DNA of 62,720 nt, filler included, from Hausera hauseri (taxonomy: Eukaryota), in assembly GCA_046269625.1 (NCBI GenBank). It is 10 parts of 10 records of this genome, joined end to end, with 100 filler letters (N's around TTAATTAATTAA, not from the genome) between each part and the next. Parts side by side here need not be neighbours in the genome. Positions count along the whole stretch, not along the records: positions 1 to 4,480 come from JBJURY010560451.1; 9 more parts are not named here. One strand, given 5' to 3'. The notes under the pieces were generated by a model that ran no database searches, was not told where the DNA came from, and saw only the letters and a list, made by a program, of their open reading frames with translations. Position 1 is the stretch's first letter. Each line of letters starts with the position of its first letter. Positions 1 through 57,942 of the stretch are shown piece by piece. The position numbers and the translations under genes were made by a program.

Positions 1-2026
1 GTAACCGCTTTGTGGTCGGTAACGATTATAATTCTCTGCCCGTAGACATAAACGTTAAAATGTCGTAAAGCTTCCTTTACAGCTAGCGTTTCTAATTCTA
101 TAACCGAATATTTCTTCTCAGCTTTCTTTAGTGATCGACTTCCATAAGCAGTCGGATGTTCTAGCTATTTGTCTTCTCATTTCTGAGCTAATTCGTATAC
201 AACGCCTTCTTTACTGGTGTCAGTTTTAATTATAAATGGTAGATTAAAATCAGGATACCTTAATATAGGTTCGTTGGTTAAGATTTTCTTCATTTCATCG
301 AAAGCTTTTTGTTCGATATTGGTCCATTTCCATTTAATTCCTTTTTTGACTAAACGATACAAGGGTGCATTTATTTTCGATTTGTCTGGTACATAAGTGG
401 CATAATAACCACCTAGACCTAACCAATGTCTTAATTCCTTCTGGTTCTGAGGTTCTCTACAGTCCGATATTTTGTTTAACATTGACTTATCGGGTTTGTA
501 TCCTCCTCCAACTATATGTCCAAGATACTATACTGCATTTTGAACCAATTTACATTTTTTAAGATTCAGTTTCAAGTCTGCTTTCTCCACTCTCATGAGT
601 GTGTCCTCGATATTTTTAAATGTTTTTCTTCCGTTTTTGATGCGATCATTACGTCGTTCAAGTATGCAAACGCGTGTTCCAGTCCCATCAGCATTTTTGT
701 CATCATTCGAGTAAAGATAATTGGTCCGGTAGTTATCCCGAATGTCATAATGTTAAATTTGTATACACCGTCGTGTGTCTTAAATGCGGTTTTATAGCGC
801 TTTTCCTCTATCTCTACTTGCCAATATCCAGATTGTAGATCTAGCGTGGTAAACCATTTAGCTCCCGAAAGTCTGTCCAAAGCTTCCTTTACTGATGGTA
901 ACGGAAAAGAGTCCTTCATCATAAGTGTATTTAAGGCTCGATAGTCGATACAAAACCGGTGCTTACTGGTACCTTTCTTCTTAACCATAAGTATAGACGA
1001 GTTCCAAGATCGGCAGCTTGATCTAATTATGTCGGCATTTAACATTCGTTCTACTTCCTTAGTTATTTCTGGCCTTAACGAGTGTGGAGGAGGGTACCAT
1101 TTCGGCATCTTTTGATCCTCTAAGTCTATTTCGTCGTTCGATCCAGGCTTTTCTTAATCGGAATCGTGAGTCTTAAAGTTTTGGCTCGGCCAATATCTTC
1201 TTCGTTTCTTGCGATAATTGAACTATAACGACAAAGAAATTTGTAAAATCGACAAAATGATTCTGGTGAAAACTTAATCTCCTCGTGGGGCGGAAATTTG
1301 GCGCCCTTATGGTTTCTCCTCAACAGTGATTGATGATACTCTACACGTGTGTCCCAAAGTGGTATTGGCGTACAATTTAGTCGGGTTTGGTGCATTATTG
1401 GCTATCCTGATTGGCACACGGCCTGTCGATACTCTTGTCAAAACATTACTGAGTACGAGGTTTGGATCGAGTGATTCTTTTGGTTTGAAATATACTGGCT
1501 GATCGTCATCTTGACGTATCTGAGCATATATTAGTATTACTGTTCTGGGTGGTATGGTTTCATCCACTGGAATCCACACTTCTCCAAATTTTTTGTCTTT
1601 TGTGGTTTTAACGCCTTTTATCGGGCCGAGTTCTATCAACTTGTCTGCATTGAAATCGATTGCCATATTGGGTAATTGCCTCAATAGGTCACATCCTAAC
1701 ACTACATTATCCGTTAATTGCTCCATTACTGAAAATTCGTGATGAAAAATTTGTCCCATTATGAGAATTTCTGGTTTCCAACGAAATTTACTTTTCGGCG
1801 ATTGTCCGAAGGCTCCGATACTTTCTGGGTCCGTCGTAGGAGGTGGATATAATTGTTTTTGTAAGAATTGTGGTATCGAATCATATTTTATCAGTGATAT
1901 TTCAGATCTTGTATCTATTAGTGCATAAACCTCCCAATCTTCCAATTGAATCTTTGCGAAGGGCTTGCCTTCAATTACTGTACCGTAATAGTTTGGTGCT
2001 ATCTTGGGTTGTCGTATGGTGGACAC
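1..2026 (-). pseudogene. pol: Decayed Ty3/gypsy pol (aspartic protease - RT - RNase H)
   Basis: Protease motif ALIDTRSEISLI (DTG changed to DTR). RT motifs RFCIDYRALN, LDLQSGYWQ and AYLND (YxDD changed to YLND). RNase H motifs IIKTDTS and AVKEALRHF. Broken over ORFs 1307-2026, 1126-1395, 593-1108 and 177-482 by frameshifts and stops. Confidence 0.95.
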
Positions 2027-2461
2027 TTTGTAACCGTGGATGGTAACTTCGGTGGTTCCAACTGGCTGCTCGACTAATTGTCTTAACTCTCCATTTGGGT
2101 ATAGTGCGTTATTCGTTTCATTCGTGTTTTCTACTCTCTGGTTTCTAACTGGCGGCTGAACATCTGAGGTTCGGAGATTTCCTGCTTCATGGCTTTGAGT
2201 AAATATCGATTGCGTTTCGTTTGGCTTAGGTATTCTGGACGAGTAAATTATACCGTGGTCGTCGACTGCTGGTCTATGGTTTGGAACTGAGGTTTTCTCT
2301 GTTTCGTGGATCTTACGCAGTATCCCATAGCGTTTTGTTCCTTAGTAAGGATCCTCTAAACTAAACGGCTCCCGATAGATGTCTGTCTGGCACGAACTTA
2401 GATTGTTTCTTACAATCTTCATACATAGGCGCCGTTGGCGGCAATATGGGTAATGGTAGTT

Positions 2462-4075
2462 TCATAGCGGAGTAATTTTTGTGCCTGTTTGGCCTGAAGA
2501 GGACGTCTCCTCCCTTAGGCTCGTCATCATCTGAATTATTTCTTCGTGTCTTACTAAGAATTTTTGCCTGTAATTAGTTACGCGTCTTTTACGTTTCCTA
2601 TTGTGATAGCCAACATGTCGTTTTACATTTGTTTTCCATTTATTCTCTTCATAGGCCTTTAAGAATTTGCCGAAAGGAGTGATAATAGCCGTTAAAATTT
2701 TGCACGAAAATCCTGCCAAGGTAAATATCTCGTATCCATTTATGATTGACTGAATTATAGCTTTTACCAGTTGAATTAAAAAATATATCGCTAGAAATCC
2801 TGACGCGGCTTGTCCTAATATTAGGAATCTTCCCCAAATTTTGTATAATATTTCTGTAGTTACCTTCTTATAATAGCCAACACCAAGTAAAGACTCCAAT
2901 TTCGCCTGGTAGCGCGAGTCCTCTAATATTGTATGCATTGCTCTGTTTAATTCATGAGTATGTTGGCGGGGAAAAGCGAAAAATTGTCTAAAAGTCTCGA
3001 CTTCTTTTGGTCGATAAATACCTTTTGCGGCTGTATCTTGAAACTTATCGTCGGTTATTCCTTTTATTAGGTTTGTTTTTGTCAGCTTGGTAGGTGGTGC
3101 GATAATACCACCATTCGGTAGACTTACCCAGTCGGTCTCGCTCCGTCTGAACATTGGCTCTTCTAAGCTAGTTTTGCAATCTCTCAAAATTGTCGGTTGA
3201 GTAGAGGTTGCCAACAACACTCTGGTAATCGGTGTTACTAATCGCGGTACGTCCTTATATATCACTGGAAGTTCTTGTATACACCTCTTTTCTTCCACGT
3301 TGATCGGTACGTCTTTCTTCTCACACTCATACGTCAATGAAATCGCTGCAGTTACTCGTCCAAAAACATCTTCCTTCATTGGAATTATTGGTGATGCCAA
3401 CTCAGGATTTACGTATATCAGAGCTAGTTTAGTTCTCATGATTTCCAAGTCCAATTTACAGTCGTTTGTTATCATCTTGTGGTACAATTCGGCTATTCCG
3501 GCTTGTCCTTTACAGTAGAAATAGTCGTCTCTGTTCTTTAAATAGTCTTCAATCCGGATGTCCTGAGTCTAGAGTTTGAACGTTCTGGCATTTATTTCTG
3601 TCTCGGCTACGAAAAATGCTTCATAGTTGGTGGCATACATTATGACGTCACATCTGGTAAGCATCACTTTCTTTACAAATTTTAATCCATGAGTATCAGA
3701 AATTAGTATAGTAGGTGTGGACTGTTCGGCTACATCCTCTCGTGTTTTAGAGTTAGTTTCTGTAGTACTTATGCATCGTTTTTCCGTTGTCTCATTGAAT
3801 TTAAGCTCTTTAATTCTGATAAAGTTGCAATCGGTCTTTGCTGGAGGTTCCCAAATTACTACAGAACTTTGAAACAAGCATGTGCCATCCTAATTGTGGC
3901 ACTTGTGATTCTAGGTGTAAATTTTAGAAACACTATGAAACATCACTGTTTGCATGCGCATTTTGGTTTCGTAAAAATCCACTACCACGACGTTTGACTC
4001 TAATCCTTTTCCGGTATCGTATTCTGTACCTTGACAATGTCCGGTGTGCATATCTAGTCTTCCTGCTGCCACTTT
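2462..4075 (-). pseudogene. env: Env-like glycoprotein, chuvirus-G / class III fusogen-like (C-terminal two-thirds)
   Basis: Cys-rich ectodomain (GHCQG, VIWEPPAKTDC, TYECEK, RCIQELPV) and a C-terminal membrane region FLILGQAASGFLAIYFLIQLVKAIIQSIINGYEIF, typical of chuviral G and the retroelement-captured versions of it. Paralogous to 50090-51544. Confidence 0.8.
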
Positions 4076-4480
4076 ATACACCCTGTGGAGGATTTAAAAT
4101 GGGTATCTTATTATAAACAAATGCACCATATATTCTAAATGCCCCATTACTAATTAGATGTTTGCTGGGCCCATAACTAGCAAACTTTATTCCCTTCATT
4201 ATCTGTGTTTTTTCTTTTAAACTTGACCTTAATTTCGTAGACACCGGTTTATATATCCCCATATACCCTTTACCCAATATATAATAATATATAATATTCC
4301 TCAAATCAATTTCTTTAGTTTTCGCAGTTATTGATATCGGAGGGCTGCTCTCCGGGGGAATTTCTCCACCATTAACTTTGTGTCCCAAAACATACATACT
4401 GAGTTTATCATGCATACTCACAGCACAACCCCTGGCAGGGTCCACAAAACAGAAAAAACAAGAGTAACGAATAACAATAC

Positions 4481-12108: not shown

Positions 12109-13376
12109 CACAGTGTATTCAAAAAGTTCCAGGAAAAGTCAAACAGACTATATAACATAGAAAATATACGCATAATTGGTGTCGGGCTTCTATGTAGTCT
12201 CCCTCAATTCGATGCACTTCTGGAACAAGTATACGGGTCCGTAAACGCATTCTGGAAACCCTCCGATTCAATACCGTTAAGGTCCCTTGTCACCACCGCT
12301 TAGATCGCCTCCACCGACTCGTACCGCCGCCCCTTCATCTTCAGTTTCAACTTGTTAAACAAAAAGAAGTCCGGCGGGAGTATCTGCAGAATATGTGGTC
12401 GATGCAAGTAATCTGCCTCCTTGCCAAAAATTGCTGTACATAGATGAACTTATGAGATGGTGCATTGTCGTGCAATAAGAACCAATTTCTATTGTCCAAC
12501 AATTAGGGCCTCAAACGCCGTATTCTTTTCAAAAGCTGATGCAAAACATTTTTGTAGAATGCTCCAGTCATAGTAGAACGTTGACGATAAAATTCTCGAT
12601 GAATTATGCCCCTATTTTAGAAAAAAGTGATCAATATTGTTTTGGTTTTCGATTTGAAAGCGCGAACTTTCATCTGCCGGCCCTTATCTGGACTTCTCTC
12701 CTCAGCATTTTGGCGTTTTATCTCCGCATCATATTCGAAACATCACGAGTCGTCTCCGGTGACAATGTTTTGCAAAAAATTTAATCCGCATCGGACATGG
12801 CAATAAAATCTTTTAGGAAATTCTGTGTTCTTTTTGCTCGAGGTGAGAGAGTGCGACACAAATCTTCCGTCATGATCGTAAAAACTGATCCCACACTCAA
12901 GTTTAACGACTCGGCAATCATTTATATCGTCATTCGGCGGTCTAACCTCACCAACGCTTGCACACGGCCAACATTCTCCTGATTTCGACTCGAACATGGA
13001 CGACCCAATCTCTCATCATCTTCTGTCGATTCTTTTCCAGCTTTAAACCTCGAAAACCATTCAAACACTCGCGAACGACTCATAGTATCATCACCATATG
13101 CAGATTTAATCATTTCGTACGTCTCTGTAGCCGATTTGCCTAATTGAAAACAAAATTTAATGTGCGTACTTTGCTCCACTTTTTTCCCATGACAAGAACA
13201 TACAGAGACTTTATACATAGATGAACGCAGACAAGTCTGAAGTTGTCAGAAATGACTGAAACTTTGTATAGGCATGGCTGAATGGCGTTTCTACGTGATA
13301 CCATTTGTCGGATACAGCTATCACCACTTGTACCGTTTTATGAGCGGTAGTTCTGGAACATTTTGAATACATTGTG
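12109..13376 (-). mobile_element. mariner (DD34D) element, near full length, decayed
   Basis: TIRs cacagtgtattcaaaaagttcc / ggaacattttgaatacattgtg. Motifs GKSATETYEMIKSAYGDDTMSRSRVFEWFSRFK, IVTGDD, LHDNAPSH and PDFFLF. Confidence 0.93.
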
Positions 13377-21226: not shown

Positions 21227-22492
21227 CAGGGTGCGGCGCCAAAATCTGGAAAAATGATACGTTTTTCCAAATATATATTTTATTACAGAAACAAAAGGGT
21301 TTACAAATTTTTTTAACCACACATTTAGTCAATGTATCTCCCGCTTAATTGGATGACTGCTTCCATTTTCGATCTGAAGCGTGAGAATGTGCGCTTTAAT
21401 GTGTTACGGTCCATATCGGTGAATTCCTCTTCAATAGCGGCTCTCAATGATGCGACGTTTGGATGTCTGGACTTGTTCATGACCCTTTCAACTACGCCCC
21501 ATACATAGAAATCCAAAGGATTCAAATCTGGGCTGTGGAGAAGCCAGAATTCTTTCGACCGAAACATGTCGACGTTGTCCGACAACAAATTTTGCGCCAA
21601 ATGACTAGTGTGGACAGACGCACCGTCCTGCTGGAATACATACGACTTTTCAGACGATAGTTTCCATTCACGGTTTCACTACATTTGTCAAAACACGCAA
21701 ATAAACTTGTTTTGTGACATTTTCCCCTTTGTTAAAGAAATACGATGGCATGACATTATCCTCACACCTAGCACGAGAACATTCGCCGGAAAATTCGTTC
21801 TTGCAACAATGGGGACATCTTCAGGGTTGTGGACGAGCCAGCGGTCATTCCTTCGATTGATTTTCGCAGCCACAGTAAAAATTTTCTCATCAGAAAAAAA
21901 CATAAGTCATCCGGAAGCATTGTTTTTTTAATGAATACAAAAGCAGGTTGCAGCGTTCAACTCGCTTTGTCCTGGTGGCTTGGGAAAGCAACGGTGTCAC
22001 TTTAATTGTGTACGACATGTAGTGCAGGTTCGCCTTGATGATTCGATGCATAGTTTTCTCGCTCACATCAACAACCGACGACAATTTTTGGATCGACAGC
22101 CCTGGATGCTCAAAAATCAGCTTATGAACCAGTTGAATGATGTCGGGCGTCCTGACAACTCGCTCCTTCGAGTGGGTTTTCCTCTCCGGTATTGCGACAC
22201 CTTCGTTGGATTTATCCGACTCGTTGTACTTTGCGATAACATAATATACAGTCGATCTGGGGTACCCGAAGGACTGAATGATTTCTCTCGCCGAGCGTCC
22301 AGCGCGAACACTTGATAATCGCGGATCTTTCATTATGCTCCGGACTTGATTTCAACATTGCGACTGTTTCGAGGTTATGATGATTTAGTACATGCTTCAA
22401 GCCATTTGAATGCTAATCGCGACATCTACCAATGGTATAGAACAGTGAGCATTTCACACTCAATTTTGTCCGGATTTTGGTGCCGCACCCGG
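21227..22492 (-). mobile_element. maT/DD37D-type transposon, full length, decayed
   Basis: TIRs cagggtgcggcgccaaaatc / gattttggtgccgcacccgg with TA flanks. Motifs FFSDEKIFTV, QQDGA and SPDLNPLDFYVW. Confidence 0.93.
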
Positions 22493-24227: not shown

Positions 24228-26579
24228 TTATCTATATGCCAAGTCCGCTTCCGAATCTGCTTCGTTCGACGGCGATCGTGAGTCAATGTGGTAGGACGTA
24301 GTGGGTACTCCGGGGAATATTTCTATTATCTTTTTATTTTCTCCATTGGAATAATATCTTAACCTGGTAGCTTCAGCTCTGCATACTGGGCAGGTCGTTT
24401 TCCCATTTTTCAGGGTCCACGTTTCTAAGCAGTACCGGCAGTACTTGTGACTGCAATCTTTGTTGTCTAGGACTACGAATCCTTGATAGAGATCCGCGTC
24501 ACAAACAGGACATTATTTTTTTTCAGCCGCATCAATGTTCACAAGATTTTCATCAACTTCTATTCTCTCAAATACCAGCCCTTTCTTGTCTTGATATAAG
24601 TATCCGTGCAATCTTTTTTGATTTGGGTCTATCGAGCTTTTCCTTGAGTCATCGGATACTGCAACTAAGGTCCATTCGACAATTTCTTGTTTGTCCAAAT
24701 CGAGTACTCCAGTCTTCTTGTACTGTCTTTTTAGTTGAATCCTAACTTGGGTATCTACGGGAATTGTTAATCGGTTAGTGCCACTCTTTGATTGAAATAT
24801 CGGGGCTAGGTATCTGCCGATAGTATGGTCTTCTTTGGCATATCCGTTTCCACTCACTATCTGCCTTGGAACGGTAGATACATAAAATATAGCTTCTTTG
24901 ATTTTTCCCTTGCTATAGTATTCAGCCATGACGAGGATTCGTTTATATTCTTTTACTTGGCCAAATTCTGTGACGATAATTGGGGTATCTTCTTCCCAGT
25001 TCTTTCGAAGAACGTTAACTTCCGTTTTAGGGGCTTTGGGCTTAGTAATTTCTAGTTGGTTTTCTCTTTCTTCTTCCCATTTTTCTTGATTCGATATTCT
25101 TTTCTGATCATCCATGAGTTTCTCGGGAAGTAGGTTATCTGTCGCTGGGCCTTTGCTAGTCTTGCTTCTTTTTTGTTGATGTAGTCCAGGAAAGAGGTCT
25201 TTGTCTTTTGCCCCTTTGGTTTCTCTGAACTATCAGCTCCTATTATTATTTCTCCTTGAGCTTTACTGGTTGATGGTTTCTGTAGATTGGTTGAGACTTC
25301 TGGCTGGTCGTTATAGACTGTTATTCGAAATTGGTTATGTTCGCGGGTTTCGATCTGTCGATAACTAAGGTATTCACTAAACCCTTTTCGGAATTTCTGC
25401 AACAGTGCCTTGGGGTTGTTATCAGACATCGCATTTTGTATGGGGCTTCTGGGTTTTCATTCGTGCTCTCATCGTAATGAGTTGTAGATATCCTTTATAA
25501 ATTTGGTCCTTTGGCTGGCTGTCATTAGCTTAGGGAATTTGAACCGATCGTCATTCATGGCTTCTAGCATCGTCTTAAATTGTGATTCGCGGGATGCTGA
25601 CGGAAGCAGGCAGCCTCTTTTCCGCATTAACAAACTTTACACTTGGCTTACTACTGCTGGGTTCCGACTCAATTCGCGAATTCCGGCTATGTATTCCTGT
25701 CTGATTCCTAATCGTTCCAACGCTTCGTGTACTCGAAATCCGGTAACGACGTATCCGTATAAGCAATGGCTTATATCTTCTTGGATTTCCAAGAAATCTT
25801 TTCCTTTTTCGAGCTGCGGCTTCGTAATTCCAGTAACGTCGGGAAAAGTATCTTGTATCCTAACCCGAGGTGAGATTATTTTGCTTATGATTTCCTCTCC
25901 ATTGATATTTCTAATAGAGACCTCAATCGGAAAGTACCATCCGTCATCCTTTTCTCCATAGTTTACGGCCAATATCCGGGTATGTCGGCCATCTGGGACT
26001 AGTCTGTAGGATTCCCAATTTTGCTCTATTTCGTCTTCCGATGGTTTCTGTACATATAATAACGGGGATAGCAGCTTCATCATTTCTGTACGCCATGTCA
26101 TTTCGATCATGATTTTGGTCGGTAGGTCTGCAATACTGAGTTCCAGAGCATAATTCATAAGGCTATAGCAACATAGCTCATCGGTGCTAAATTTCCACTG
26201 TTGCCCCTTTTGCGTACTGCAGGACTGTCGTACGATCCTGTATTGGATTTCTCCATCAGCGACATGTATGTACAATTGCTGATGTGTCGGCTCATATGGG
26301 ATCAGATCCCTCAAGAGGTATGCTCGTGCATCCTCGGGATTTCTCATGGCATATAATCGGATCAATCTATTCTCTTCTAAACCACATTTTAGTCCGTTCG
26401 GTATTTTACTCTTTTGTTTGAAATCTACATAATTCTGGCTTTTCAAATTTTCTCCAATTTGTCGGTATAGGTTTTTAGATAACGGCTTGAGGACAGTGAC
26501 ATGCTGCTGCAAAAAATTATCGATATCGAAATTGGGACTGACTGATAAATTCTTCGCCTTCTCGGTCATACTTACTCTG
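24228..26579 (-). pseudogene. Accessory polyprotein: unknown N-domain, inactive REX4-like exonuclease, charged linker, unknown domain, C3HC4 RING
   Basis: ORFs 25637-26635, 25052-25429 and 24513-25115 are followed, past an in-frame TAA, by CPVC...CSHKYCRYC...W...CPVCR. Collinear with 47236-49698. Confidence 0.8.
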
Positions 26580-30410: not shown

Positions 30411-30863
30411 AAAAATTTTGAAGAGGCTGTTGCGAAAGCGAAAAACATCGAAAATGCATTCAGGGACCAAAGCTACCAAGCAAACAATTACTCAGCTGAA
30501 ATTAACACAATCATGCATTCGCAAATTGAGGGAAATAAAAAATTAATGGAACTCACTAAAAAATTAAATGAAATGGAAGAGACTAAAACTTTAAATAATT
30601 TAGAAGTGAGACAAAATAGTGAAAATCAAAGAGAAAAATTATGTTGTTTAATTTGTGGTAAAAACCATCTAACATTAAATTGTTGGCACTACCCAAATGT
30701 AAGAAACCATCAGCAAAATAATTTCAATCAAAGATACAGCCAAAACTATAATAGAAATAATACAGGAAGGAATAATAGAAACTTCAGACAAGGCAGATAC
30801 CACAGGAAACCAAGAGGAGGTAACTTCAGGCAGCACCCTTACTCAAATCAAAATTTAAACTAG
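30411..30863 (+). CDS. gag: Gypsy gag C-terminus (zinc knuckle, N/R-rich tail)
   Basis: FEEAVAKAKNIE capsid-end helix and CLICGKNHLTLNC knuckle, directly upstream of pol. Confidence 0.8.
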   Translation, partial: KNFEEAVAKAKNIENAFRDQSYQANNYSAEINTIMHSQIEGNKKLMELTKKLNEMEETKTLNNLEVRQNSENQREKLCCLICGKNHLTLNCWHYPNVRNHQQNNFNQRYSQNYNRNNTGRNNRNFRQGRYHRKPRGGNFRQHPYSNQNLN

Positions 30864-30914
30864 GTGGGGGTCCTTGTAACTTTTATAGGTACAATTCCCA
30901 CCAGACAAGGACCC
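30854..30914 (+). promoter_or_regulatory. -1 programmed ribosomal frameshift signal (gag-pol)
   Basis: Slippery T_TTA_AAC in the gag frame immediately before TAG, a 7-nt spacer, then a perfect 10-bp stem GGGTCCTTGT (30868-77) / ACAAGGACCC (30905-14). The -1 frame is open into pol. Confidence 0.85.
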
Positions 30915-33900
30915 ATTATTATCATAAAAGTAGGAATAGTCAAAATTATGATTATTATAAAGAAAATTACAATTACAGAAAAAATCAGCAAAATAGTTAT
31001 CATAATAGGAATAAAAATTGGTACAGAAATAAAAATAGAAACTGGAATAACTATCAAAATAAAAATTGGAAAAACTATTCAAATCACCAAAATAAAATTC
31101 AAAAGCATAAGAAAATAAGTCAAAATTCAGATTTTAAAAATTTAAAAAGAAACCAAAATAAAATTGAAGATAAAACAATTCAAAATTCTAAAGCTAATGA
31201 AGAAATGCTGGTAGTAATGTCTTGTAATGAGAATAAAAATCATTTACCCATTATACGCTTTAAGTTTGGAGATATAATCGTTGACGCGTTGCTTGACACA
31301 GGAGCTAATTTGAGTTTGGTACAACCTAGCGTTATTGAGCAGATAAAATCAACCACTAAGGTAGATTACATCTCACGCGCAGTTAGGATTCACACCTTAA
31401 ACTCTTCAACGATACCATACTTGTCTCCTGTTAATACAAAATTTAAAATCAAAAATAAATGGTTTGAAAATCAATTTTTCGTAACACAGACAGATTGGCA
31501 ATCCAAATACAGGATAATTTTAGGGTATGATTTTCTCCAGCGAAACAAAATAATCATTGACACACCGAACAAATGCCTGATAATGGACAATAATAAATTT
31601 GAATTTGAAGAAGCTGCTCCTGAAAAGATATCCAATAATATGACAAAAAATTTAAAATCGACAGAACAGGTTAAGTCGACAGAGAATGTAAAATCATTAG
31701 AAAATTTAAAATCTAAAGATAAGAAAAAGAAAAAAAAGTCAACAGTAATAGCAAAATGTGTAAATCATATTGTTTTAGAACCTAATTCATCCAAAGTGAT
31801 ACAATTGAAAATTCCTGAGGAAAATAAGAACTTTACTCAAATTATGTTTACCCCTATTGTAAATAAACCAGGACTAATAATAAATGAATCTGTACATATA
31901 TTAAATGAAAATGAAAAATTTTATACTATAATTGAAAATGAATCACAGGAAATAATAAATATAAGGAAAGAGACTAACTTAGGAAAAATTGAGGTATTTG
32001 AGAATAGTAGCAAAATTGCTCCTTCTAAACAAGAGGTTTTGCAAATTAACAATTTAAATTTAGAAGAAGTTATAAAATTAAGAAAGGAAGAAGTGCAAGA
32101 GTCAGATTTTAAATTAGACCATCTGCCAGAAAATGAAAAAAAAGAAATCTTAGATTTGTTAATGAAAAATTACAGGGTATTCTCAAAATCTTACCTTACG
32201 CTTGGCTCGACTGATGCTGTAGTACCTGAGATAAAATTGTTACATAATTTTCCAATTCAAACTAAATCTTATCAAATACCTAAAATAGCAAAAGAATTTG
32301 CAAAAAAAGAAATAGCACAACTTTTAGAAGCAGGAATAATTGAACCATCAACATCAACGTATAACTTTCCAGTAATCTTCGTCAAAAAGAAACCACTTCC
32401 AGGTGCAGATCCAAAAAATTTAAAATTCAGAATGGTCATAGATTACAGATTACTTAACAGCATTACAGAGTCATTCAAAATTTGTCTTCCAAAAATATCA
32501 GAAATTCTTCACAACATTTCAGGAAAAAAACTATACTGTGTTTTGGATCTTAAATCCGCATTTTTCCAAATTAGACTTCAGGACTGTGACAAGCATAAGT
32601 TTGCATTCTGTTGTGAGCAGGGAAACTACCATCCCACGAGATTATTTTTTGGGGCGAAGAATTCAACCTCATTCTTCCATACATTAATAGCTAAGTGTAT
32701 TAATGATATAAAGGGACCCAACATTCAGTATTTTGTCGACGACATCATAATAGCAGCAAACTCCACAGAGGAGATGAAAATCTGGTTGCAGAAAGTATTC
32801 GACAGGTTAGCAAACTTCAATTTAACTTTAGACCCTCAAAAACTCCAAATTTGTCAGAAAAATATCACATATCTTGGCTTCCAAATTAACGAGAATGGTT
32901 TTTCACCCTCAGAGGATAACATTCACAAAGTTTTAAAATTTCCAGTACCAAAAAATATTAAACAGGTCCAGATGTTCATTGGTATGCTAAATTATTTCAG
33001 ACACCTTATACATGATTATGCAAAAATTTTAAATCCCATTGTAAACTTAACAAGAAAAAATGTACCATTTGTATGGAGTGATGCTTGTCAAAATTCTTTT
33101 GAAAAATTGCAAGATATAATTTTAACCCAGCCAACAGTAAAAAACATTGATGAAAATAAACCCTTGTATTTAGTATGTGATGCATCCCACATCTCTATCT
33201 CTGGAATTTTAATGCAGAAGGAGAATGAACAATTCTACCCCGTACAGTTTTTTTCGAAGCAATTAACACCCGCTGAGAGCAAATATCCTTCAATTAGAAG
33301 AGAGTTTTATGCCATCTTTGCATCATGCAAACATTTCTACGAACAGCTGTATGGGAAAAAATTTACAATTCTCACTGATGCCAAACCATTAACTCACCAC
33401 ATGCATTTAGAAAAACAGCCGGATATCGTAGCTAGGTGGTTGTTGTACTTGCAACAATTTGATTTTGTGATGGAACACATCCCTGGTTTTTCGAACCCGT
33501 CTGATTTTCTGAGTCGCATGGAGCCAGTACCATTGAATGTCAACAACTTAAATTTATTTTCGACTGCAGGCAATCTCAGTCAGGAAAACATAAAAAATCA
33601 ACAAGAAAATGATCAAAAAATTTGTGAAATCATAAACAAAATCAAGAATAATGATAAAAAAGTCAAAAGACAATTTAATATTGATACAGAAACAAAATTA
33701 TTAATGAAAAAGAGAAAACCAAGTAAGAAAAATAAGGCAAAGGGTAAAAGCATTGAATTTAGAATTGTAATGCCACAAAATTTAATTAAAGAGTGTATAG
33801 AAACAGCTCACATACCCCATTTTGGCACTGAAAAAACATATAACTATATCAAAACAAAATATTTTTGGAAAGGAATGTTTTTGGACATCAAAAATTTTTG

Positions 33901-34825
33901 TGAAAATTGTACAAAATGTTTGGAGTATAAATCTAAATCAAAGAACACTTTACCTCAGCAAATTTCAAAAAAGCATTTAGCACCAGGAGAGCAAATTGCA
34001 ATTGATGCAGTAGGAAAATTACCTCGATCATATGATGGGAAATTCTTTATACTCACAATAGTCGATCACTACTCCAGGCACCTAGAAGCTTTTCCAGTTC
34101 CAAATATAACCTCAACCACAGTCATAAAATGTTTAAATGAGTACATAGCAAGATTTGGCATTCCCAAAATTTTAATATCTGATAACGGTTCAAATTTTAC
34201 ATCTGATGATTTTGAAAACTTCTTAAAAAATTTAAATATTCAGCATAATAGAACAGCTGTCTATCACCCAGTTTCGAACGGCTTATTGGAGCGGATTCAT
34301 AGGACGATGAAAGCCAGCATATCAGCAATCTCAGACAAAATTTTTGAGTGGCCCAGTGCTCTTTTAACCTTTAAACTACACTATAACAATTCCAAACACA
34401 TTGTCACAGGATATTCACCAGCAGAGATATTTTTTGGTAGGTCATTAAATTTACCACTACAGGCAAAAGACCAGTTAAAACATGTAGAACACTTTGATGA
34501 ATACAAAAAACAATTGGCAGAAATTTCAAAAGAACAAAGAGAATCAATTGCAAATAATGAGGAGGAATATTTTGAAGCACAATCACATCAATTAAGAGGT
34601 AGAAAAATTAAAGCATTAGAAGTTGGAGATCAGGTTTTTATTAGAAAGTTTACCAACACAGGCACTTTTCAAAAAAAATTCGAAGGTCCTTGGGAAGTAG
34701 CAAGATGTTTTCGAAATGATAACTATCTATTGCAAAAAACAGAGGATAATGAATTAAGAACAAAAAAATTACATGTGAGTGACATATTTATCCAAAAACC
34801 ATTGAGACCAAACATTATAGAATAA
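30854..34825 (+). CDS. pol: Intact Ty3/gypsy Pol (PR-RT-RH-IN)
   Basis: LLDTGA, RMVIDYRLLN, LDLKSAFFQ, YFVDD, VCDAS, HHCC finger, AIDAVG/SDNG/LLER and EGPW. No stops from the slippery site to 34825. Confidence 0.97.
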   Translation, partial: FKLGGGPCNFYRYNSHQTRTHYYHKSRNSQNYDYYKENYNYRKNQQNSYHNRNKNWYRNKNRNWNNYQNKNWKNYSNHQNKIQKHKKISQNSDFKNLKRNQNKIEDKTIQNSKANEEMLVVMSCNENKNHLPIIRFKFGDIIVDALLDTGANLSLVQPSVIEQIKSTTKVDYISRAVRIHTLNSSTIPYLSPVNTKFKIKNKWFENQFFVTQTDWQSKYRIILGYDFLQRNKIIIDTPNKCLIMDNNKFEFEEAAPEKISNNMTKNLKSTEQVKSTENVKSLENLKSKDKKKKKKSTVIAKCVNHIVLEPNSSKVIQLKIPEENKNFTQIMFTPIVNKPGLIINESVHILNENEKFYTIIENESQEIINIRKETNLGKIEVFENSSKIAPSKQEVLQINNLNLEEVIKLRKEEVQESDFKLDHLPENEKKEILDLLMKNYRVFSKSYLTLGSTDAVVPEIKLLHNFPIQTKSYQIPKIAKEFAKKEIAQLLEAGIIEPSTSTYNFPVIFVKKKPLPGADPKNLKFRMVIDYRLLNSITESFKICLPKISEILHNISGKKLYCVLDLKSAFFQIRLQDCDKHKFAFCCEQGNYHPTRLFFGAKNSTSFFHTLIAKCINDIKGPNIQYFVDDIIIAANSTEEMKIWLQKVFDRLANFNLTLDPQKLQICQKNITYLGFQINENGFSPSEDNIHKVLKFPVPKNIKQVQMFIGMLNYFRHLIHDYAKILNPIVNLTRKNVPFVWSDACQNSFEKLQDIILTQPTVKNIDENKPLYLVCDASHISISGILMQKENEQFYPVQFFSKQLTPAESKYPSIRREFYAIFASCKHFYEQLYGKKFTILTDAKPLTHHMHLEKQPDIVARWLLYLQQFDFVMEHIPGFSNPSDFLSRMEPVPLNVNNLNLFSTAGNLSQENIKNQQENDQKICEIINKIKNNDKKVKRQFNIDTETKLLMKKRKPSKKNKAKGKSIEFRIVMPQNLIKECIETAHIPHFGTEKTYNYIKTKYFWKGMFLDIKNFCENCTKCLEYKSKSKNTLPQQISKKHLAPGEQIAIDAVGKLPRSYDGKFFILTIVDHYSRHLEAFPVPNITSTTVIKCLNEYIARFGIPKILISDNGSNFTSDDFENFLKNLNIQHNRTAVYHPVSNGLLERIHRTMKASISAISDKIFEWPSALLTFKLHYNNSKHIVTGYSPAEIFFGRSLNLPLQAKDQLKHVEHFDEYKKQLAEISKEQRESIANNEEEYFEAQSHQLRGRKIKALEVGDQVFIRKFTNTGTFQKKFEGPWEVARCFRNDNYLLQKTEDNELRTKKLHVSDIFIQKPLRPNIIE

Positions 34826-35759: not shown

Positions 35760-36173
35760 ATAGAAAACTGCCCCATATGCTTGGATGAATTAGCCGAGGA
35801 AAGAGCAATACTGCCTTGCAATCATAAATATTGTTGTTCCTGCATAAATACGTGGCTGTCAGAACAAAACAACTGCCCATGTTGTCGAAGGTTGTGCGTC
35901 TTTTGTTGGGTGTGCTTTAGAATAACAATGGAGGAAGTGGTTATATTATCATGTCAACATGCCTTTTGTCAGAAGTGTATCATGGAGCATCTGGGATTCT
36001 ACAGGCTATGTCCATCTTGCTTTGAAGAAGTGGAGTTTTATACTACAGGGGAAACAGTGGTTTACTTGAACATTGATAACAGAATCTCAACAACTCTAGT
36101 AGTAGATGAGGATGATGACGAATGGCCAGAAGCATGGAGGAATCCCCAATCGTTTGCGATCGATGACATTTGA
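35760..36173 (+). CDS. Tandem double C3HC4 RING-finger protein
   Basis: CPICL...PCNHKYCCSC...W...CPCC followed by CWVC...SCQHAFCQKC...CPSC. No in-frame ATG before the first RING. Confidence 0.85.
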   Translation: MENCPICLDELAEERAILPCNHKYCCSCINTWLSEQNNCPCCRRLCVFCWVCFRITMEEVVILSCQHAFCQKCIMEHLGFYRLCPSCFEEVEFYTTGETVVYLNIDNRISTTLVVDEDDDEWPEAWRNPQSFAIDDI

Positions 36174-36240
36174 ATATTGTTTTAGAATTAATTATTATTA
36201 AAACTTGTTGAGTGTATTGTTATAATATTAATATAATTAA

Positions 36241-36534
36241 GGTTATCAGTACAGAGAAAACACTATATACAACGGGCTACAATTCACCAAAGGGATATCA
36301 GAAACATATACTACTTATAACCCAAAAGGAGTTTTTTCACCAATAGGACCAGCGTGTGCTATATGCTTGAATCAATATTCAACGGATCCAGCAGAACTGA
36401 TTATTTGCAAACATATATTTTGTCGTACTTGTATAAGAGAATGGTATCACACATCTGATACTTGTCCATTATGCCGTATTAACAACAAATTATTTCGTGT
36501 CGGTCATAAATATTATACCATAAAGAATTTATGA
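36241..36534 (+). CDS. Small C3HC4 RING-finger protein (not in the ORF track; no ATG)
   Basis: CAICLNQY...ICKHIFCRTCIREW...CPLCR, with AATAAA overlapping the stop. Confidence 0.85.
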   Translation, partial: GYQYRENTIYNGLQFTKGISETYTTYNPKGVFSPIGPACAICLNQYSTDPAELIICKHIFCRTCIREWYHTSDTCPLCRINNKLFRVGHKYYTIKNL

Positions 36535-36611
36535 ATAAATATATCTGATTCTATTTTTGATAATTACTCGAATTTGATGGTGATTAATTCAGCTAACGTC
36601 AAAAAAAACGG

Positions 36612-37775
36612 ATGATTAAGAGAATGAGATTTGAAATAAATGGCCAAGATGAAGAGATAGAAGAAACGCAAGTTAATTTGGTCAAATATCTAAAACATTA
36701 TCGCAATAGACAGCTTGGTCCAGCTTTATTTATTAAGAGATTAGTGAGATATGATAATACGAAGTCGGTGGATGATACGATGAAAATTACTCAAAATAGA
36801 AAAATATCATTCTTAGAAAATCCCAATTTACCAGTCCCAGGAGAGTTGGCTTGTTCTTATGCTGAAGCCGGATTATTTAGAACTCCAGCGGGTCAAATCA
36901 AATGCATATATTGCCAAGGAGAATTTCAGTATGAAAAAACGAAGAACCAGCCAAACAAAACCCATAAGAAACTATATCCTACATGCCCTTACTTATTAAA
37001 TGTTGATGTTAGTAACATACCATTAGTAGATGTTTTTACTAAGAAAGCTGATACAGACCTGAGTATTACGCATAATGTTACAGTGATAGCACGGATACAT
37101 TACGAAACAGATAACGCGATATGAACTTAATTTTAAACACCCGCCAAGCAAGAAAGCTAACCTTTAAGGAAAATAAAGATAACAAACATTTGGCGAATCA
37201 AGGATTAGTATTAATACTTAAAGAAGGAGCGCAATATGTGAAATGTACGGTATGATTTAGAGAAACATGTTTATTAGAGAACATTGACCAGAGATGCCCG
37301 AGTATACTGCATAATTCTAAGTGTATGTATTCGATATATAGAACCACAGAGTCACAGAGTAAAAAGCAATGCAGAATTCAGTCTGACATGGAGGAATTTT
37401 GTGAAATGTATCAGGAGAGCACAATAACAGTATCAATAATATCCCGCCATCCAGAGAAGCGAGAGAATATATTGCAGTATATTAAATGTCGAGTGGAACG
37501 ACAACCGGAGTGGTCATTAAACGCATTCGAACTACTTCAAAATTTGGATTTCGTACTTCCATACGAGGCGAATGAAATAGAGAAGGATGATCTTAATGAA
37601 CTTTATTTGCGAGAGTTTGGATGTGTAATCTGCTATGTGAATTCGGCGCAAGTTATTCTTTTACCCTGTGGTCATATGAAAGTATGCGAAAATGTGTGAC
37701 CCAGACAAAGAACTGTCCAGTGTGTAGGAGTCGAATTGAAAGAAAGATAACCTGTTTTCAGTTCCCAGAGATATG
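36612..37775 (+). pseudogene. Inhibitor of apoptosis (BIR-BIR-RING), frameshifted
   Basis: BIR1 RKISF...AEAGLF...KCIYC...H...PTCPY, a degenerate BIR2 RKLTF...LANQGL...VKC, and an IAP-type RING CVICY...LLPCGHMKVC...CPVCRSRI. Confidence 0.85.
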
Positions 37776-37835
37776 AAATGATAACGTTATAATTGATTGA
37801 ACATCTATTGTGTACGAATAAATATATTTTAATGC

Positions 37836-38384
37836 ATGATTACTCATATTGTTAGATTAAATAAATCATTTATAGGAATAACAAACATCAAAGATGTGAC
37901 TCTGACGAATCTTAATGAATGGATAGATCAATTACTAATGATAAAAATACAACCTCCCAAGATAGCTTATGAATGGTACAAACTGTATAACAACAAACTA
38001 ATTGAGAAGATAGCAGAATTGGGATATAATAAGTATTTGGCAATGATTGCTGTCAAAACTAACAAGGATATTCAATATGAAACATCACCAACTATAATGG
38101 TCAACATATACCAATTACAACTAATGGACAACGAGTATTACCAAAAAATTCAACACTTGCAATCGCCACTAAAGGAAAAAGAACAAGAGGTTGAAGAAAG
38201 ATGTACGGAAATCAGCCGCACCGTTTGGATTTGTTTGATTTGTAAAAAGAATCAATCAAATATACTTTATTTGCCCTATGGACATATTATTCATTGCAAA
38301 ACATGCGTTACCGGACATTCCACCTTGTCTCAGTATACTATATGTGAATTGTTTATAGAAGAAACTTGTACTGTTTATGTATAA
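37836..38384 (+). CDS. IAP-like C-terminal module (UBA-like plus degenerate RING)
   Basis: IAELGYNKYLAMIAV (UBA-like) and CLICK...ILYLPYGHIIHCKTC...TIC ending in VYV*, like IAP C-termini. Confidence 0.7.
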   Translation: MITHIVRLNKSFIGITNIKDVTLTNLNEWIDQLLMIKIQPPKIAYEWYKLYNNKLIEKIAELGYNKYLAMIAVKTNKDIQYETSPTIMVNIYQLQLMDNEYYQKIQHLQSPLKEKEQEVEERCTEISRTVWICLICKKNQSNILYLPYGHIIHCKTCVTGHSTLSQYTICELFIEETCTVYV

Positions 38385-41300
38385 TAAGAGAGTTTTTTTT
38401 AAAATATAACAATGGCGCAAAGACATACACACGATACCGATTTCAAAGACGATTAGCGCAAAATACGTCAACAGCACTCAACGAAGATAATGAACAGGAG
38501 GAGAATGTTAGTTCTACTAGTGGTTCGGAAGTAATAAGTACAGCGTCAGCTCCAGAATCTATAATAGACTTAGATTCAGTACAATTATCTCCAACTTTAG
38601 TACAACATAATTGGACAAGAGAAATTAATGGAAGAAGGAGACCATTTCGAGGACGATACCGTAATACCCCAGACCCACGACAGTTAATACAAAGAGTACT
38701 CAATCAAGAATTAGAATGTCGTACACGATATGAAGCACACCAAGTAAATGTAGATGAACTACGAGTGAGGCAAAATAGAACAGAGGGTAATATCCGACAA
38801 TTGCTACAGGAAATACAAAATTTACCTCGACAAAGAGATGATAGCACTATAGAAGACAGTATTTTAAATCCTGATTTGAGGTTAGATAGAATCGAAGAAA
38901 GAGCCGTAGTGTTAGAACAAAAAATAAACGATAATAATATAAATTTAAATGAAATTAAAGAAAAAACTGATCAATTAACACAGGATGTGGGTATTCATAC
39001 CAGACAAATACATGATATACGACTCCAAGCTTACGACCACACGATAGCAATACGTCAAAACAAAGAACAAATAGTAAACAACGATGGACAAGTAACCCAA
39101 GGATTAAATAAGATACAAAACCAATTGACGGTCATTGTAGACGAACAAGAACAGATTCAAGAGAATCATAATTTCGTTAGAAATCATATTGATCATCTAA
39201 CACAGGAAATAACTGAATTAAATGAACACGTTGAGCAGATACAAACGAGAGATATAGTAAATCAAATCAACGAACGACTAAACGTGGTACAATCCCCAGA
39301 ATTTTCAATAGAATTGAGTGAGATATCTTGTGAAACTACTGATAACGATGACAACATGGCTCGACACGGGAATAATCAAGATCGGTTCGCTCAGGATGAA
39401 GAGCGTAACTGCGACCAAAATAACAATGCCGGTTACGGATTATGGAATTTTAGGAGGGAGAAGAAGTATCAAATGCTTCCTCGCCTTCAACCATACGAAG
39501 GACGAGTATCAGATTTAGAGGATTTCTTGGACGAATATGATTCATTGGCAACAGCCATGCATTGGGATGATGCGAAAAAAATATCTATGTTGCCAGTACA
39601 TGTAAACAATGACTTGAGGATAGCAATAACACGAATACCTCCACAAAGAGGGGAAACTTGGGTACAGCACCGAGAAAAAATATTACGGAATCAACAGGTT
39701 GATATACAAGAAAATAGATATCTAAAATTCCAAAATTGTAAACAAAAACCAAATGAAGAGGTATTAACATATATTAATAGATTTAAAACAGCAATGAATA
39801 GGTATTTTGGTGATAACGCACGAGCATTTGGTGCTATGATTATGAAACAATTTGTACTTGGACTCTCACCACCTCTACGAGAAGGAGTCAAATTTCATAC
39901 AGCAGATAATATTAATGACTTAATTGATTATACCCGTCGAATGGCTACTCGAATAGATGAAACACCGGTATGGAATAATCAAACACATATCGCAGCAGTA
40001 GCCACCGCTCCATTATTAGTGAGACCAGACGTACCAAATCGGAGTAATTCACCATGGAGAGATTTACCTAGAAGTCAGAGCCCTAGCGGACAAAGTAATA
40101 ATACATCACAGAGGAGTAACACTCCGGAAAGAAGAAATAATAATCAACCTTCTAGAGACTTCAACAATAATCAAAGGGATACACCATATCAAAATCAAAG
40201 AAACGAAAGATATAATGATAACCGACAACGGAATGAAACAAGATATGAAAGATCACGCGATTACTCAAGAGATAGAAATGATAATAGAAGTCGATTTCCT
40301 AGTAGAGATAGGTACAGTAATGATCGAAATTTCGATCGATACAACAATAGAAATAATCAAGTAAATTCACACTACAGACGCGATGATAGCCGAACCCGCT
40401 ATTCAACTAATAGATCAGATGGACCAAGATTTAATTATTCTAACGATAGAAGGAATGATAGTCGCGATAGATCCAGAAGAGATGACAGTCGGGAACGATA
40501 TAATAACTTTAATAGAAATAATAGTGGAGAAAGAGATAACCGGCGAAGTAACAGCAGAGACAGATATAATTCTGGAAATAATAATAGAGACCGGTATAAT
40601 GATCCAAGATACAGGAATTATGATGGAAGACGAGACTATACTCCACCCCGACGAGAATCAGATAGATACAATAGGAATCCTAGTCCATATCCCCAAAGAG
40701 ATCGAAATCGATCTCCCTCTCCAATACCAACCCATAATAATAACGAAAGATACACTAGACCGACAGACTATATTCTCAGACAAAACGATATTAGTAGAAA
40801 TCCTTCACCATTTCGATATGATAGGAATACGACACCGGAACGGCCCAGATACTCAAATGAGAAAAGACCAGATTCAATGACATCACCAAATAATAATCTC
40901 ACTAAGGAAAAAGGAAGCTCTTCCGATAATGGAAGGAGTAGTAGCGACGAAAGGAGTCTATCACCTCGGCATTCAGTTACGTTTAATGAACAAACCAAAT
41001 CCGCTTTTACAGGATTATTAATAGCGAAACCTATACAAGACGACCAGCAAAGTATACTTAAATCATCATCAAATATTTCTATCTTAGAAAAACCTTTTGT
41101 AACAAGAAATCGCTTAGAACAAGCAGGACAAAAAGTGCCAGATATTCAGCATAATACACTTCCCTATATGCTATGGCCAGAAACCAGAGAAATAAAAGAC
41201 TTACTCTTAACGTTTGTAGCGGTAGAGAAGATTATCGAGAATAATCACGAACCAGAAATCGACCGAATAAGAATAGAGAATAATGAAGGTAATATAATAC

Positions 41301-44300
41301 TGGAGCTAGAAAAAGTACGCTCAGAAAAAGAGAAATACTTTGAAAATCTTAGGCAATTACTCTGTGGAAGAATTGTTGTCGGAATCGATTTACCATGGTT
41401 ATTTAGACAAATACAGCTGAAAGAAACGGATATTTTTGGCACGTTTAACGTGGATCAGAATTTCAATTTACCAAATGATCAATGGAAAAGAGATGGAACA
41501 TTACCACAACGGTTGATTAACTTACGACGAGAATACAAGATAAAACTTAGTCGTCAAGGATCTCCATATTATATCTTCCCAAGTAGACCATTGTTTAAAG
41601 ATAATAAACAACCTATGCAGGAAGTGACATGCAATACCACGCTGATTGCAGAAGTAGCGTTACGACACATGGATATGGAAATAACACGAAGTTGGGATAG
41701 GATATTTGATGATAAGAAAACCAATCGAATAGAGTTTGCAGAAATTGCTAATCAAGGATCAATTTGTATGGAAAGTATTGATAAAGTTTATTTAAAGAAT
41801 ACTGATATTCAAATCAAAAGAGATGACCCACCATGTGCAGTAATCACTGATCAAGGAGAAGTACGGCTACAGATTAATAATAAAGCGGTAATTATCTCCA
41901 AAGAGACTATGATAATTCCCAACTATCCTTATGAAGGAAATTGTCGGATTCAACCATTAGATGACAATCCCTTATATTTAATACAATTACCTAAGAAAAC
42001 ACCCATACTATCCATGGACGAACCTGTAAAACAGGATAAGGAAATAATACTTACAGGTAGATGTATAAACAATGGAGATCAGAAAGGACTTACTCAAATC
42101 ACCGCCAAAAATTTAGAAGGGGAAACAATTTTCAATATTCACATATATTCGAACATACCAGACCCTACGAAGTACACTGAGTATAGTAGACGAGTCAATC
42201 CTCAACGACAAGAAGCAGTGAGTAAGTTTATGAATAAATATTTACCAGGAAAAATAATCATTGAACGACAACTACCAGAACTATTAAATACATTGAAAAT
42301 TAATCCAAAAAATTTAACTGCTGTCTATGATTTAGAACAAACCAACAGAAATTATAGATGTCTAGACTTGTACCATGGTCATAACTCAGAAATAATGGCA
42401 CAAAGATGTTTATATGAGTACTTAAAGACGACACGAGTGGAATACAATCTGCCATGGATAATAGAGAGTCAGAAAACATTACAAATAGCCTTTCCGTTAA
42501 TTCGACAACTTGAGAAAACAAATGAAGCACGAGCCATTCCAGTAATCGAACCAATTGCTCAAAGATGCCCCGATATGGACTCGGACGAATATTCGCAGGA
42601 GCCCGTCAGAACTCGACTAACTGGAGAATGGATAGAACCTCACAATGATAGATTGGTTGCACCTCTAACTCAGCCAAATATTCCACCCCAACGACCTACA
42701 TCATTCGAAGCAATATGGGATTTGGCGCAACCCAGTACATCCAAGAAAGAATCACGATTAGTTGATACAGATGACACATTTGCAATTTTAGATGACGACG
42801 AATTTCTTCCTATGCACGATGCGAACGAATATCCAGAAGATCCGTTTTTATCAGTCGAAAATCCAAAATATACACCAGAAATAAATGTACCTCCAGGTTC
42901 AATAATATATGATGAACCTACAAAGCTAATAATTGAAATACTCAAAGCGAAACTACAAATGACAGATACACCACCGAATGAAGTGTGGAATGCTCTACGA
43001 CAATATGAATCGTTATCACTGACTCATCGAATAGAATGCGCGCCACTACTTATACCGTTGACGAAGGATGATGTATATTGTTTCCTAGCAGCAAGAAAAT
43101 TGCTTAAGACTCTTGGTAGAGATTTAAGAAGAAAACATAGAAGAAAACAGCCATATATAATAAGCATAGAAATTAAAACTAATAAACGGGAGCAGGAAAT
43201 TGAAGTAACGGCTGGAATGTTTACTAAATTCATTGATCTCCGAAGAAAAGTATTGGACGAGTTAGATTTGGAAACCAATATAATAGCAAAAACTGATGTC
43301 TATGGTAGAATAGCCGCTGATAATGATTACATAGTGGATTACGGACTACTTACCGGAAAAATCTACCAGATTATCATGGAATTTGGTACTAAGAAAAAGG
43401 GAGGAAGACCACGAAAGTGCGATTTTAACCCCATAAGTGATGATGAAGAAAATCCTGAGGAAGAAAGACCGGAGAAACAAAAAAGAAAAAAGCCATTATC
43501 AAGAAAACGTAAGGAACAACGAGAAGCATTAGAAGACATACTATATGACAATTTTCAGCAAATTACTATTAGCGATGATGAAAATGAACAAATGAAGGAA
43601 CCAGCTGCAGGAACATCAAATCAACAGGAAATGAATATCCCAAATGTAACATTGACAACCCAAGAACTTATAGAACAATTAATTAAGAAAGTTAACCCGA
43701 ACCAGCTCAAGAAGATACCAGCCATTACAACAATTCCATTACAGTCCATAATAGAAACGGCTAGAAACTTCTCATCACAAATTACAAAGTTACTACAGAA
43801 GTACAAATTAAAAGGAGGTCTGAATAAGACATTAACACGGTTATTAAAGGAATGCGATCAAAACCGACTGCTTATGGCTTTAGGATGTATAGTAGTTAGT
43901 TTTAAAAATCAAACTGAGATTGATGCTAAACTGCACCATACAGTGAGAGACTTAGCCCACCACATGGATAAATTAACGAAGGAATGGGTAACTAAACAAG
44001 GAGGATGGGACGAAATCCTTAAGAAATTTAACCCTTTGTATAATTCAATACAAGTAAACGACAAGTATGTCACATTCAAATTTCATAACCAATACTATAT
44101 GGTCACATTTGATGATAACGCCGTCAAATGTTTTCGAATAATGAAAGAATCCATTAAATGTGATGATCTTCAACCACAACATTCGTATCGAATACAAATA
44201 GTATATTATACACCTCAACTACCCTTCAGGCCAAAGACAGTAGCAATATGCCATATAACCACCTTAGAAGAACGGAACCCTACAAAAATCGAATCACTGA

Positions 44301-45376: not shown

Positions 45377-46977
45377 TAGTGTCAACTCAAACCGATAGAA
45401 CAAATTATGTTATAACTTGTGCAGCAAGACGTTATGATGACGAAATATATATTATTGAGACTACCAATCCGCAACCTATAGTATCGTGCACGAGACACGA
45501 TAATCGAGAAATACTTCTAACATTGCAACTACAATCATCATGTCCAAATACCTTTTGGTTAAGTAGTTTTCAATACGCAGTACAGAATTACATCACGTAT
45601 ATGCCATTAAACCTAATGCAAGTGCCGGAACGGATAACTTCGTTCTTATTTAAACCCCTGGACGCTTACATTCAAGTAAGATCTGACCGTATTTTTATTA
45701 GTCTACCACATCCAGATTTTATAGTAAACATAGAGAATGCTAACGATGCCTGCTATTTACTTACTAGTACTTACGTCGAATGTCCACCACTAATATCCGG
45801 TTATCCTTATCTAGTCCACATTCAACGACCTCACTACAACCCAATACGAAGACACAAGACAATCGCACTTTTGCAGGTTACTACTCTTAAAAAAGGAGTA
45901 AATTCATTGTACAAATTCCCTACACTTGATGAAATAATGAAAGGAGGAAGATTTGTTTCTCGAAAAATCATCGACCCACAAGAAAACAAAAAGTTAGCTC
46001 ATAAATCACCACTTAGCGAGCATATGAAACAATTTCAGATAGATTACAATATGCTTATATTAATCGTAATAATTGTACCAATCAGTGTAGTACTTGTCGT
46101 AACTGTCATAATCCTAGTATGCATATATAGACGCAAATACAACCGAGTGAATGTGTCTCGTCATACAACCACCTTTGTTGATGAACCAATTGAAATCCCA
46201 CTAAATGATCTGGAATATGACTTCGAAATTTACGGTGATCAGAAATGGTTATCTGTTATCCGAAAGGAGGAATATTATCCATATGTAGAAAATAACGAAG
46301 AGCAGGCTCCATCACAAGCCGAACGCTATATGTTAGGATGTATTGACGAACCAACCAACCCAATAGAATATACAACAATAAATGATGCCGGAATAACTCC
46401 ATTAATGTTGGCGGTAGCAGCAGGAAATGAAGATAGAGCTAGAGAAGCTATAACCCAATTAGGCGACGAAGCCACACAAGCATTGAAGTTTCAGGATACA
46501 AATGGCAACACTATAATTCATCTGGCTATTATGAGCGAATGCCACGATTTCTTTATATTAATGCTGATTCAATCTCAAGCACCCTTACATATACCTAATG
46601 TGGACGGAGATATTCCTTTGCTGTTTGCTATACGACATGGTCGACATGACTTGGCAATTCCGATATTCGGTTATGCCTATGACAATAAGGCATTCCAGGC
46701 AATATTCCAAACCCAATTACGCAGTACACCGTTACATCATGCAATAGTTTTTAAACGATTCCTCTTGTTGGAAACCTTTCTAAATAAGAAGTTTGACAAT
46801 GGAACTTATGTATTCGACGTAAACTACGCTCACGGATCATACGAAGAGACTCCTCTTATAACTGCACTCTTGACACGAACCTATGGTGCAGTCTCTATCT
46901 TGATGCGACGACCGGATATTCGACCAGAAATTCATAATTACCGAGGCATGACTATTAACGACATTCTGATACGCGAT
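45310..46977 (+). CDS. Continuation of the polyprotein in the -1 frame: FN3-like repeats, TM helix, ankyrin repeats (runs off the contig)
   Basis: Overlaps the end of the 2336-aa ORF. ECPPLISGYPYLVHI, TM MLILIVIIVPISVVLVVTVIILVCIY, and ANK motifs GITPLMLAV, GNTIIHLAI, GDIPLLFAI, STPLHHAI and ETPLITAL. Confidence 0.85.
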
Positions 46978-47077
46978 NNNNNNNNNNNNNNNNNNNNNNN
47001 NNNNNNNNNNNNNNNNNNNNNTTAATTAATTAANNNNNNNNNNNNNNNNNNNNNNNNNNNNNNNNNNNNNNNNNNNN
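46978..47077. other. Artificial contig linker
   Basis: N44-TTAATTAATTAA-N44. Confidence 0.99.
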
Positions 47078-52660: not shown

Positions 52661-52760
52661 NNNNNNNNNNNNNNNNNNNNNNNNNNNNNNNNNNNNNNNN
52701 NNNNTTAATTAATTAANNNNNNNNNNNNNNNNNNNNNNNNNNNNNNNNNNNNNNNNNNNN
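52661..52760. other. Artificial contig linker
   Basis: N44-TTAATTAATTAA-N44. Confidence 0.99.
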
Positions 52761-57399: not shown

Positions 57400-57470
57400 T
57401 ATTTATCATGTAAAATCATTTTTTATAACAGAAGCAAAACAACTATCTAATATTAATAATATAACAATCA

Positions 57471-57941: not shown

Positions 57942-57942
57942 T

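Follow-up and report, generated by a model that had tools for sequence, protein, structure and literature searches.

The window analyzed here, a 62,720-nucleotide stretch of DNA from Hausera hauseri, consists of short unrelated contigs strung together with N spacers, and the first of them (1–4480) carries a minus-strand retroelement copy in which env lies upstream of protease and reverse transcriptase (RT). At 4.5 kb, this contig ends inside the element, and gag is absent from it. Read in the direction of translation, positions 4480–4097, starting at the contig end, hold unrelated high-copy sequence that replaces the env N terminus through insertion or rearrangement. Six-frame comparison revealed no similarity of this segment to the env N terminus of relatives or of the paralog described below (best z of 2.9 in 24 comparisons, against 26–31 for the positive control); its depth is high, and it has loose ends near 4294 and 4381. 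Env homology begins at about 4093, and the signal peptide and first ~130 residues of env are absent. What is left, at 4093–2840, is the C-terminal three quarters of the ectodomain of a predicted class III fusogen, interrupted by stops at 3913, 3892, and 3571. It is followed by a transmembrane segment (2830–2774) and a second hydrophobic segment (2728–2672), with hydropathies of 1.66 and 1.65, both of which are aligned in relatives. The env tail and linker (2671–1967) contain stops at 2464 and 2344 and, judging from ORFs and codon periodicity, a probable excursion into another frame at about 2536–2371.

Nothing else lies between env and pol, for which Pfam recovers the gypsy order of protease, RT, and RNase H on the first contig and of RNase H and integrase on a related contig and in relatives. 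The aspartic protease (1966–1673) is of retroviral type (Pfam RVP, 3e-4, above the curated cut-off) and has a degenerate catalytic motif. Downstream of it, at 1600–1310, is a conserved spacer of beta type, located at the site of the dUTPase-like domain in the planarian element Burro. It aligns to five of five relatives (z 6–12), with no Pfam match, no dUTPase match in Pfam or the Atlas, and no named family from the Atlas at 0.9 or more. The RT (1153–596; RVT_1, 2e-22) is broken on both sides, and its catalytic motif is also degenerate, whereas the RT connection and RNase H (614–1; RT_RNaseH_2, 3e-12, and tblastn) are in another frame and cut by the contig end. A related minus-strand copy on another contig (24318–29862) consists of RNase H, integrase identified by Pfam, and then accessory ORFs. 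It shares 78% DNA identity with 1–377 and an accessory block with the paralog contig, and it is likely representative of the 3′ portion of the family. The proposal of an enveloped Ty3/gypsy lineage, made in an earlier sequence-only reading, is borne out.

Reading frames of the decayed copy

The minus-strand stop-to-stop ORFs 3568–2462 (part of env) and 2341–1307 (protease) are in the same frame, separated by stops at 2464–2462 and 2344–2342. This much of the sequence-only reading stands. The env start that it placed at 3487 does not, given the homology farther upstream, and neither does continuity from env to RT in this copy: in addition to the three stops within env, four separate protease from RT, and pol occupies more than one frame. 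Codon periodicity, modeled with other contigs as the training set, places about 1308–1140 in a second frame and, at about 2536–2371, prefers another frame at a switch penalty of 8, but not at 12. RNase H lies in a third frame. Homology across the linker favors no frame (z 4.0 versus 4.1 in 27 comparisons). Two ORFs will share a frame by chance in one case out of three, and because of the env stops, the frame changes in pol, and the probable linker excursion, a common frame with two stops is not in itself proof of one ORF.

Contigs of related copies from two public runs cover 30 of 30 bins of the region. As judged from 40 of 1354 substitution rows, most of them lack the 2344 stop, and a few vary in length near 2553–2557 and 2400. 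In light of these differences and of the linker periodicity, the shared env-protease frame of the window copy is no more than suggestive.

The env product

The 368-aa env piece matches the Pfam family Monjiviricetes_fusion (PF24664) at 1.3e-34, and the Atlas assigns it to the same family and to gB. The ectodomain was modeled as a monomer of 418 residues, lacking the missing N-terminal part and with X at the stops, from an alignment to 88 relatives, giving a pLDDT of 84. The model matched the G protein of a chu-like virus at 8.5e-16 and, in each of two PDB searches, herpes gB (3.5e-5; Z 7.8, rmsd 5.4 over 226 aligned residues). At least the best 34 rows of the PDB Foldseek search were all gB, as were the top five VIA rows; a single-sequence PDB search gave 0 matches. 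TM-scores to gB are low (0.19–0.35), as expected of a hinged monomer, and the Z score, middling when taken alone, is accompanied by concordance of all top rows. Sequence family and the gB-like fold of the predicted model, with its long central helix, thus identify env as a class III fusogen of the chuvirus G/herpes gB type. The sequence-only reading had made this assignment and had proposed a Foldseek comparison with those two proteins, both of which the model matched.

Relatives and the single-polyprotein reading

A full HMMER search with env against 1.84 billion representative proteins gave 418 matches, of which the best 150 were examined. Among the 10 best of the 418, nine have a protease downstream of env in the same protein, and the tenth ends just past env. 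Six proteins (P0002, P0003, P0016, P0021, P0152, and P0155) run uninterrupted from env to integrase, P0152 being 4844 aa in length, and P0009, P0011, and P0021 have gag or a zinc knuckle upstream of env. The env and pol of the first contig are matched collinearly by the same relatives. The comparison of RTs, made as identities to relatives and to the other gypsy element of the window, gave 43–50% for the env-pol polyproteins and 28% for the latter; the closest env identity among the matches listed is just 24–33%. A hydrophobic stretch followed by [YF]DC marks the start of env in all 13 polyproteins examined and in the paralog. The transmembrane segment and protease are 307 codons apart in the window copy, within the range of the 12 measurable relatives (130–370). 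This leaves no space for an LTR or a separate gag, the findings that the sequence-only reading had named as incompatible with its proposal.

Several of these polyproteins, namely P0152 (six stretches), P0003, and P0009, contain more than one protease-like domain, and ankyrin and C2H2 motifs also occur. P0002 is deposited as a protein of a Flavobacteriaceae metagenome-assembled genome, where host contamination of the bin is likely.

An env tree from a quick search comprised 56 rows, the window sequence and 55 of the 150 listed matches chosen by score and coverage. The window env, on a long branch, falls into a set of 14 rows (SH-aLRT 94) that includes every one of the 11 protease-fused envs. 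A 17-row group (SH-aLRT 100) encloses this set, and the remaining 39 rows, mostly stand-alone G proteins, are separate.

The fused relatives, together with the internal signal-peptide-like stretches in 13 of 13, therefore vindicate the idea of one env-pol polyprotein, on grounds other than the window copy itself. We consider it highly likely that the window copy is a dead member of a high-copy Ty3/gypsy family with a gB/chuvirus-type env upstream of protease and RT, the intact form of which likely encodes a single gag-env-pol polyprotein, like its closest relatives. No intact copy of the family was seen in two shared-word protein searches (0 of 2383 candidates of near length and 0 of 2865 of greater length passed) or in a scan of metagenome contigs (0 of 79 stretches confirmed).

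Alternatively, env might end at a true stop, with Pol reached through ribosomal frameshifting in the linker or through read-through there; less Pol would then be made, as happens at gag-pol junctions. The proline-rich, protein-like frame at about 2536–2371 does have a stop of its own at 2363, depth is very high at 2401–2550, and P0008 and P0017 end just past env. However, those two proteins may be cut by contig ends, relatives that reach beyond env are fused to protease, the length differences seen in some contigs coincide with the points where the excursion starts and finishes, and the 2344 stop is, by the substitution rows given above, largely peculiar to the window copy. We regard recoding of this kind as improbable. 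Far less probable still is the chance nesting of a chuvirus-derived or BEL/Pao env fragment beside an unrelated gypsy pol, because, although the region is repeat-dense and the window copy is rearranged at about 4096, collinear polyproteins match env and pol in order, related sequence spans all 30 bins in two runs, and env groups with protease-fused envs and not with P0035, in which a BEL-type DUF5641 precedes G. Classification of the element as BEL/Pao with a chuvirus G was rejected on the position of env before protease, the gypsy-type Pfam domains, and the tree.

Other elements in the window

The paralog (52066–50090, minus strand, on another contig) comprises a helical upstream domain, an internal signal-peptide-like stretch, and an env broken at about 50090. 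Its ORF at 52066–51338, with a Met at 51997, includes a hydrophobic stretch at about 51550 and then, at about 51487, the YDC motif with which the glycoprotein begins, in agreement with the earlier view that the glycoprotein starts from an internal signal peptide. It is a separate, internally deleted copy with about 68% DNA identity. Within its contig sequence (47078–52660, minus strand), the break in env joins an accessory block that lies downstream of integrase in the contig at 20221–29862. The upstream domain, folded without an alignment, gave a pLDDT of 41, and comparison with a BCL2-like domain was no better than with shuffles in two weak tests, a four-sequence profile and pairwise alignment. 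An accessory ORF common to 25598–26155 and 48721–49278 (minus strand; 40% identical) resembles a DEDD exonuclease by eye and is without a Pfam match.

On the plus strand, 35760–47025 contains RING, BIR, and RING ORFs, followed by an open gag ORF of 2342 aa and an ankyrin ORF. Over 1338 aa, the 2342-aa ORF shares 56% identity with the portion of P0017 that precedes env, and its BH2-like motif passes into membrane-anchored accessory sequence, without env or pol. This is likely a non-autonomous Burro-like derivative whose frame has been kept open. The BIR, RING, ankyrin, and gag ORFs of these other contigs fit the description of planarian Burro in PMC6431247 and would make a flatworm the likely host. 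An unrelated gypsy element at 30824–34825 (plus strand) has an open protease-RT-RNase H-integrase frame with no env in that ORF. Fragments of a protein-primed DNA polymerase B (5e-5) and a dUTPase (1e-13) at 52713–57986 likely represent a decayed Polinton/Maverick, and those at 12922–13245 and 21325–21675 (minus strand) belong to mariner-type HTH and DDE transposases.

The env-protease linker and a possible route to the particle

A hydrophobic residue followed by Tyr-Pro occurs in 10 of 13 hand-delimited env-protease linkers, against a mean of 1.0 in shuffles made without control for kinship, none of 2000 being as high; apart from the motif, the linkers resist alignment. In five of them, the motif is 35–39 residues upstream of the protease domain, and the linker of the window copy has LYPNGEL at 2104–2084, in the protease frame. 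PTAP and PPxY, each found in one of the 13, are not conserved, and the PTAP of the window copy (2438) sits in the other frame. YPx(n)L is an ALIX-binding late domain, and Tyr-Pro is a typical site of retroviral protease cleavage. Either role, as a budding signal of ALIX type or as a site of protease cleavage, could account for the linker motif.

From the anatomy of the polyprotein and what is generally known of how signal peptidase and retroviral proteases act, a mechanism can be sketched. Gag and the upstream domains would remain cytosolic while the internal hydrophobic stretch threads the fusogen into the endoplasmic reticulum, where signal peptidase would cut just upstream of the YDC motif. 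Return of the chain to the cytosol through the transmembrane helix would leave Pol riding on the Env tail; a single chain would thereby span the membrane twice, with the fusogen luminal and Gag and Pol cytosolic. Tethered in this way, Pol could be packaged into the budding particle and then released by the element's own protease, the tail Tyr-Pro motif likely recruiting ALIX/ESCRT or marking the cut. Processing would accordingly be shared between signal peptidase and the element's protease, and an intact element might bud and be infectious. A more specific proposal, which we put forward tentatively and with more doubt than conviction, is that env was inserted between Gag and a spacer resembling p6, leaving the budding signal on the cytosolic Env tail, where YPx(n)L recruits ALIX/ESCRT and the tail tethers Pol. 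If true, a retrovirus-like particle would be built from one membrane-spanning polyprotein.

In literature largely outside subscription journals, nothing on point was found concerning a late domain in gag-env-pol elements or newer work on Burro. The Tyr-Pro motif is the sole lead here without a counterpart in the accessible portions of PMC6431247 and PMC13524379, and the latter, to the same extent, does not discuss linker motifs or polyprotein topology. The conserved motif therefore offers a cheap handle on budding and Pol packaging, which those portions leave unaddressed.

Comparison with known gag-env-pol elements

The arrangement is real and of a kind already described, and the window copy is a decayed member of a diverged family. 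The inference of a single env-pol polyprotein was right, but the premise that it was new fails: the same arrangement was published for Burro in 2019 (PMC6431247) and surveyed in 2026 (PMC13524379). Arkhipova and Yushenova (PMC6431247) describe for Burro an ORF1 of 4,873 aa in which an in-frame env separates gag from pol; this env matches mononegavirus glycoproteins, and a further planarian has decaying fragments. In Burro/GYPSM1, giant planarian gypsy elements, a single ORF thus runs from gag through env to protease, as in the relatives of the window copy. A mononegavirus-like env, a conserved protease-RT domain, accessory ORFs, and decaying fragments are further points in common, the likeness being to the published description and not from sequence alignment, and the accessory ORFs here being on other contigs. 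Burro proper exceeds 25 kb and has long LTRs and accessory ORFs; unlike in Burro, a BCL2-like domain before the paralog env was not detected by the weak tests applied.

Chary and Hayashi (PMC13524379) report GAG-ENV-POL errantiviruses of HSV/gB type in Platyhelminthes, Nematoda, and Bryozoa, including six such elements in Schmidtea whose copy numbers reach 215. The window copy resembles these in gene order, gB-type env, Ty3/gypsy pol, and high copy number, and its env shares motifs, by eye, with the six Schmidtea env segments. Their survey kept intact elements only, whereas the window copy is decayed and of a diverged family.

On its visible features, the window copy resembles Burro in its workings and agrees with the GAG-ENV-POL group of gB type. 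We do not assign it to Burro proper, since the BCL2-like and dUTPase-like domains are unconfirmed and the contig shows neither gag nor LTRs nor the full size of the element. Chuvirus G is also reported from BEL/Pao elements of mosquitoes (Dezordi et al. 2020, PMC7642597). Their fusogen family is that of the window env, but the BEL/Pao backbone, with env after integrase, differs, and the BEL/Pao-type match P0035 lies on the opposite side of the env tree. Sacco et al. reportedly found, in 2022, nematode NERVs with a continuous gag-env-pro-pol ORF. NERVs, with env before pol, form a separate host-associated clade according to PMC13524379. As the layout is already known from such elements, the window copy adds only a diverged, dead member to a lineage that is a natural case of a retroelement with a class III fusogen inside its own polyprotein.
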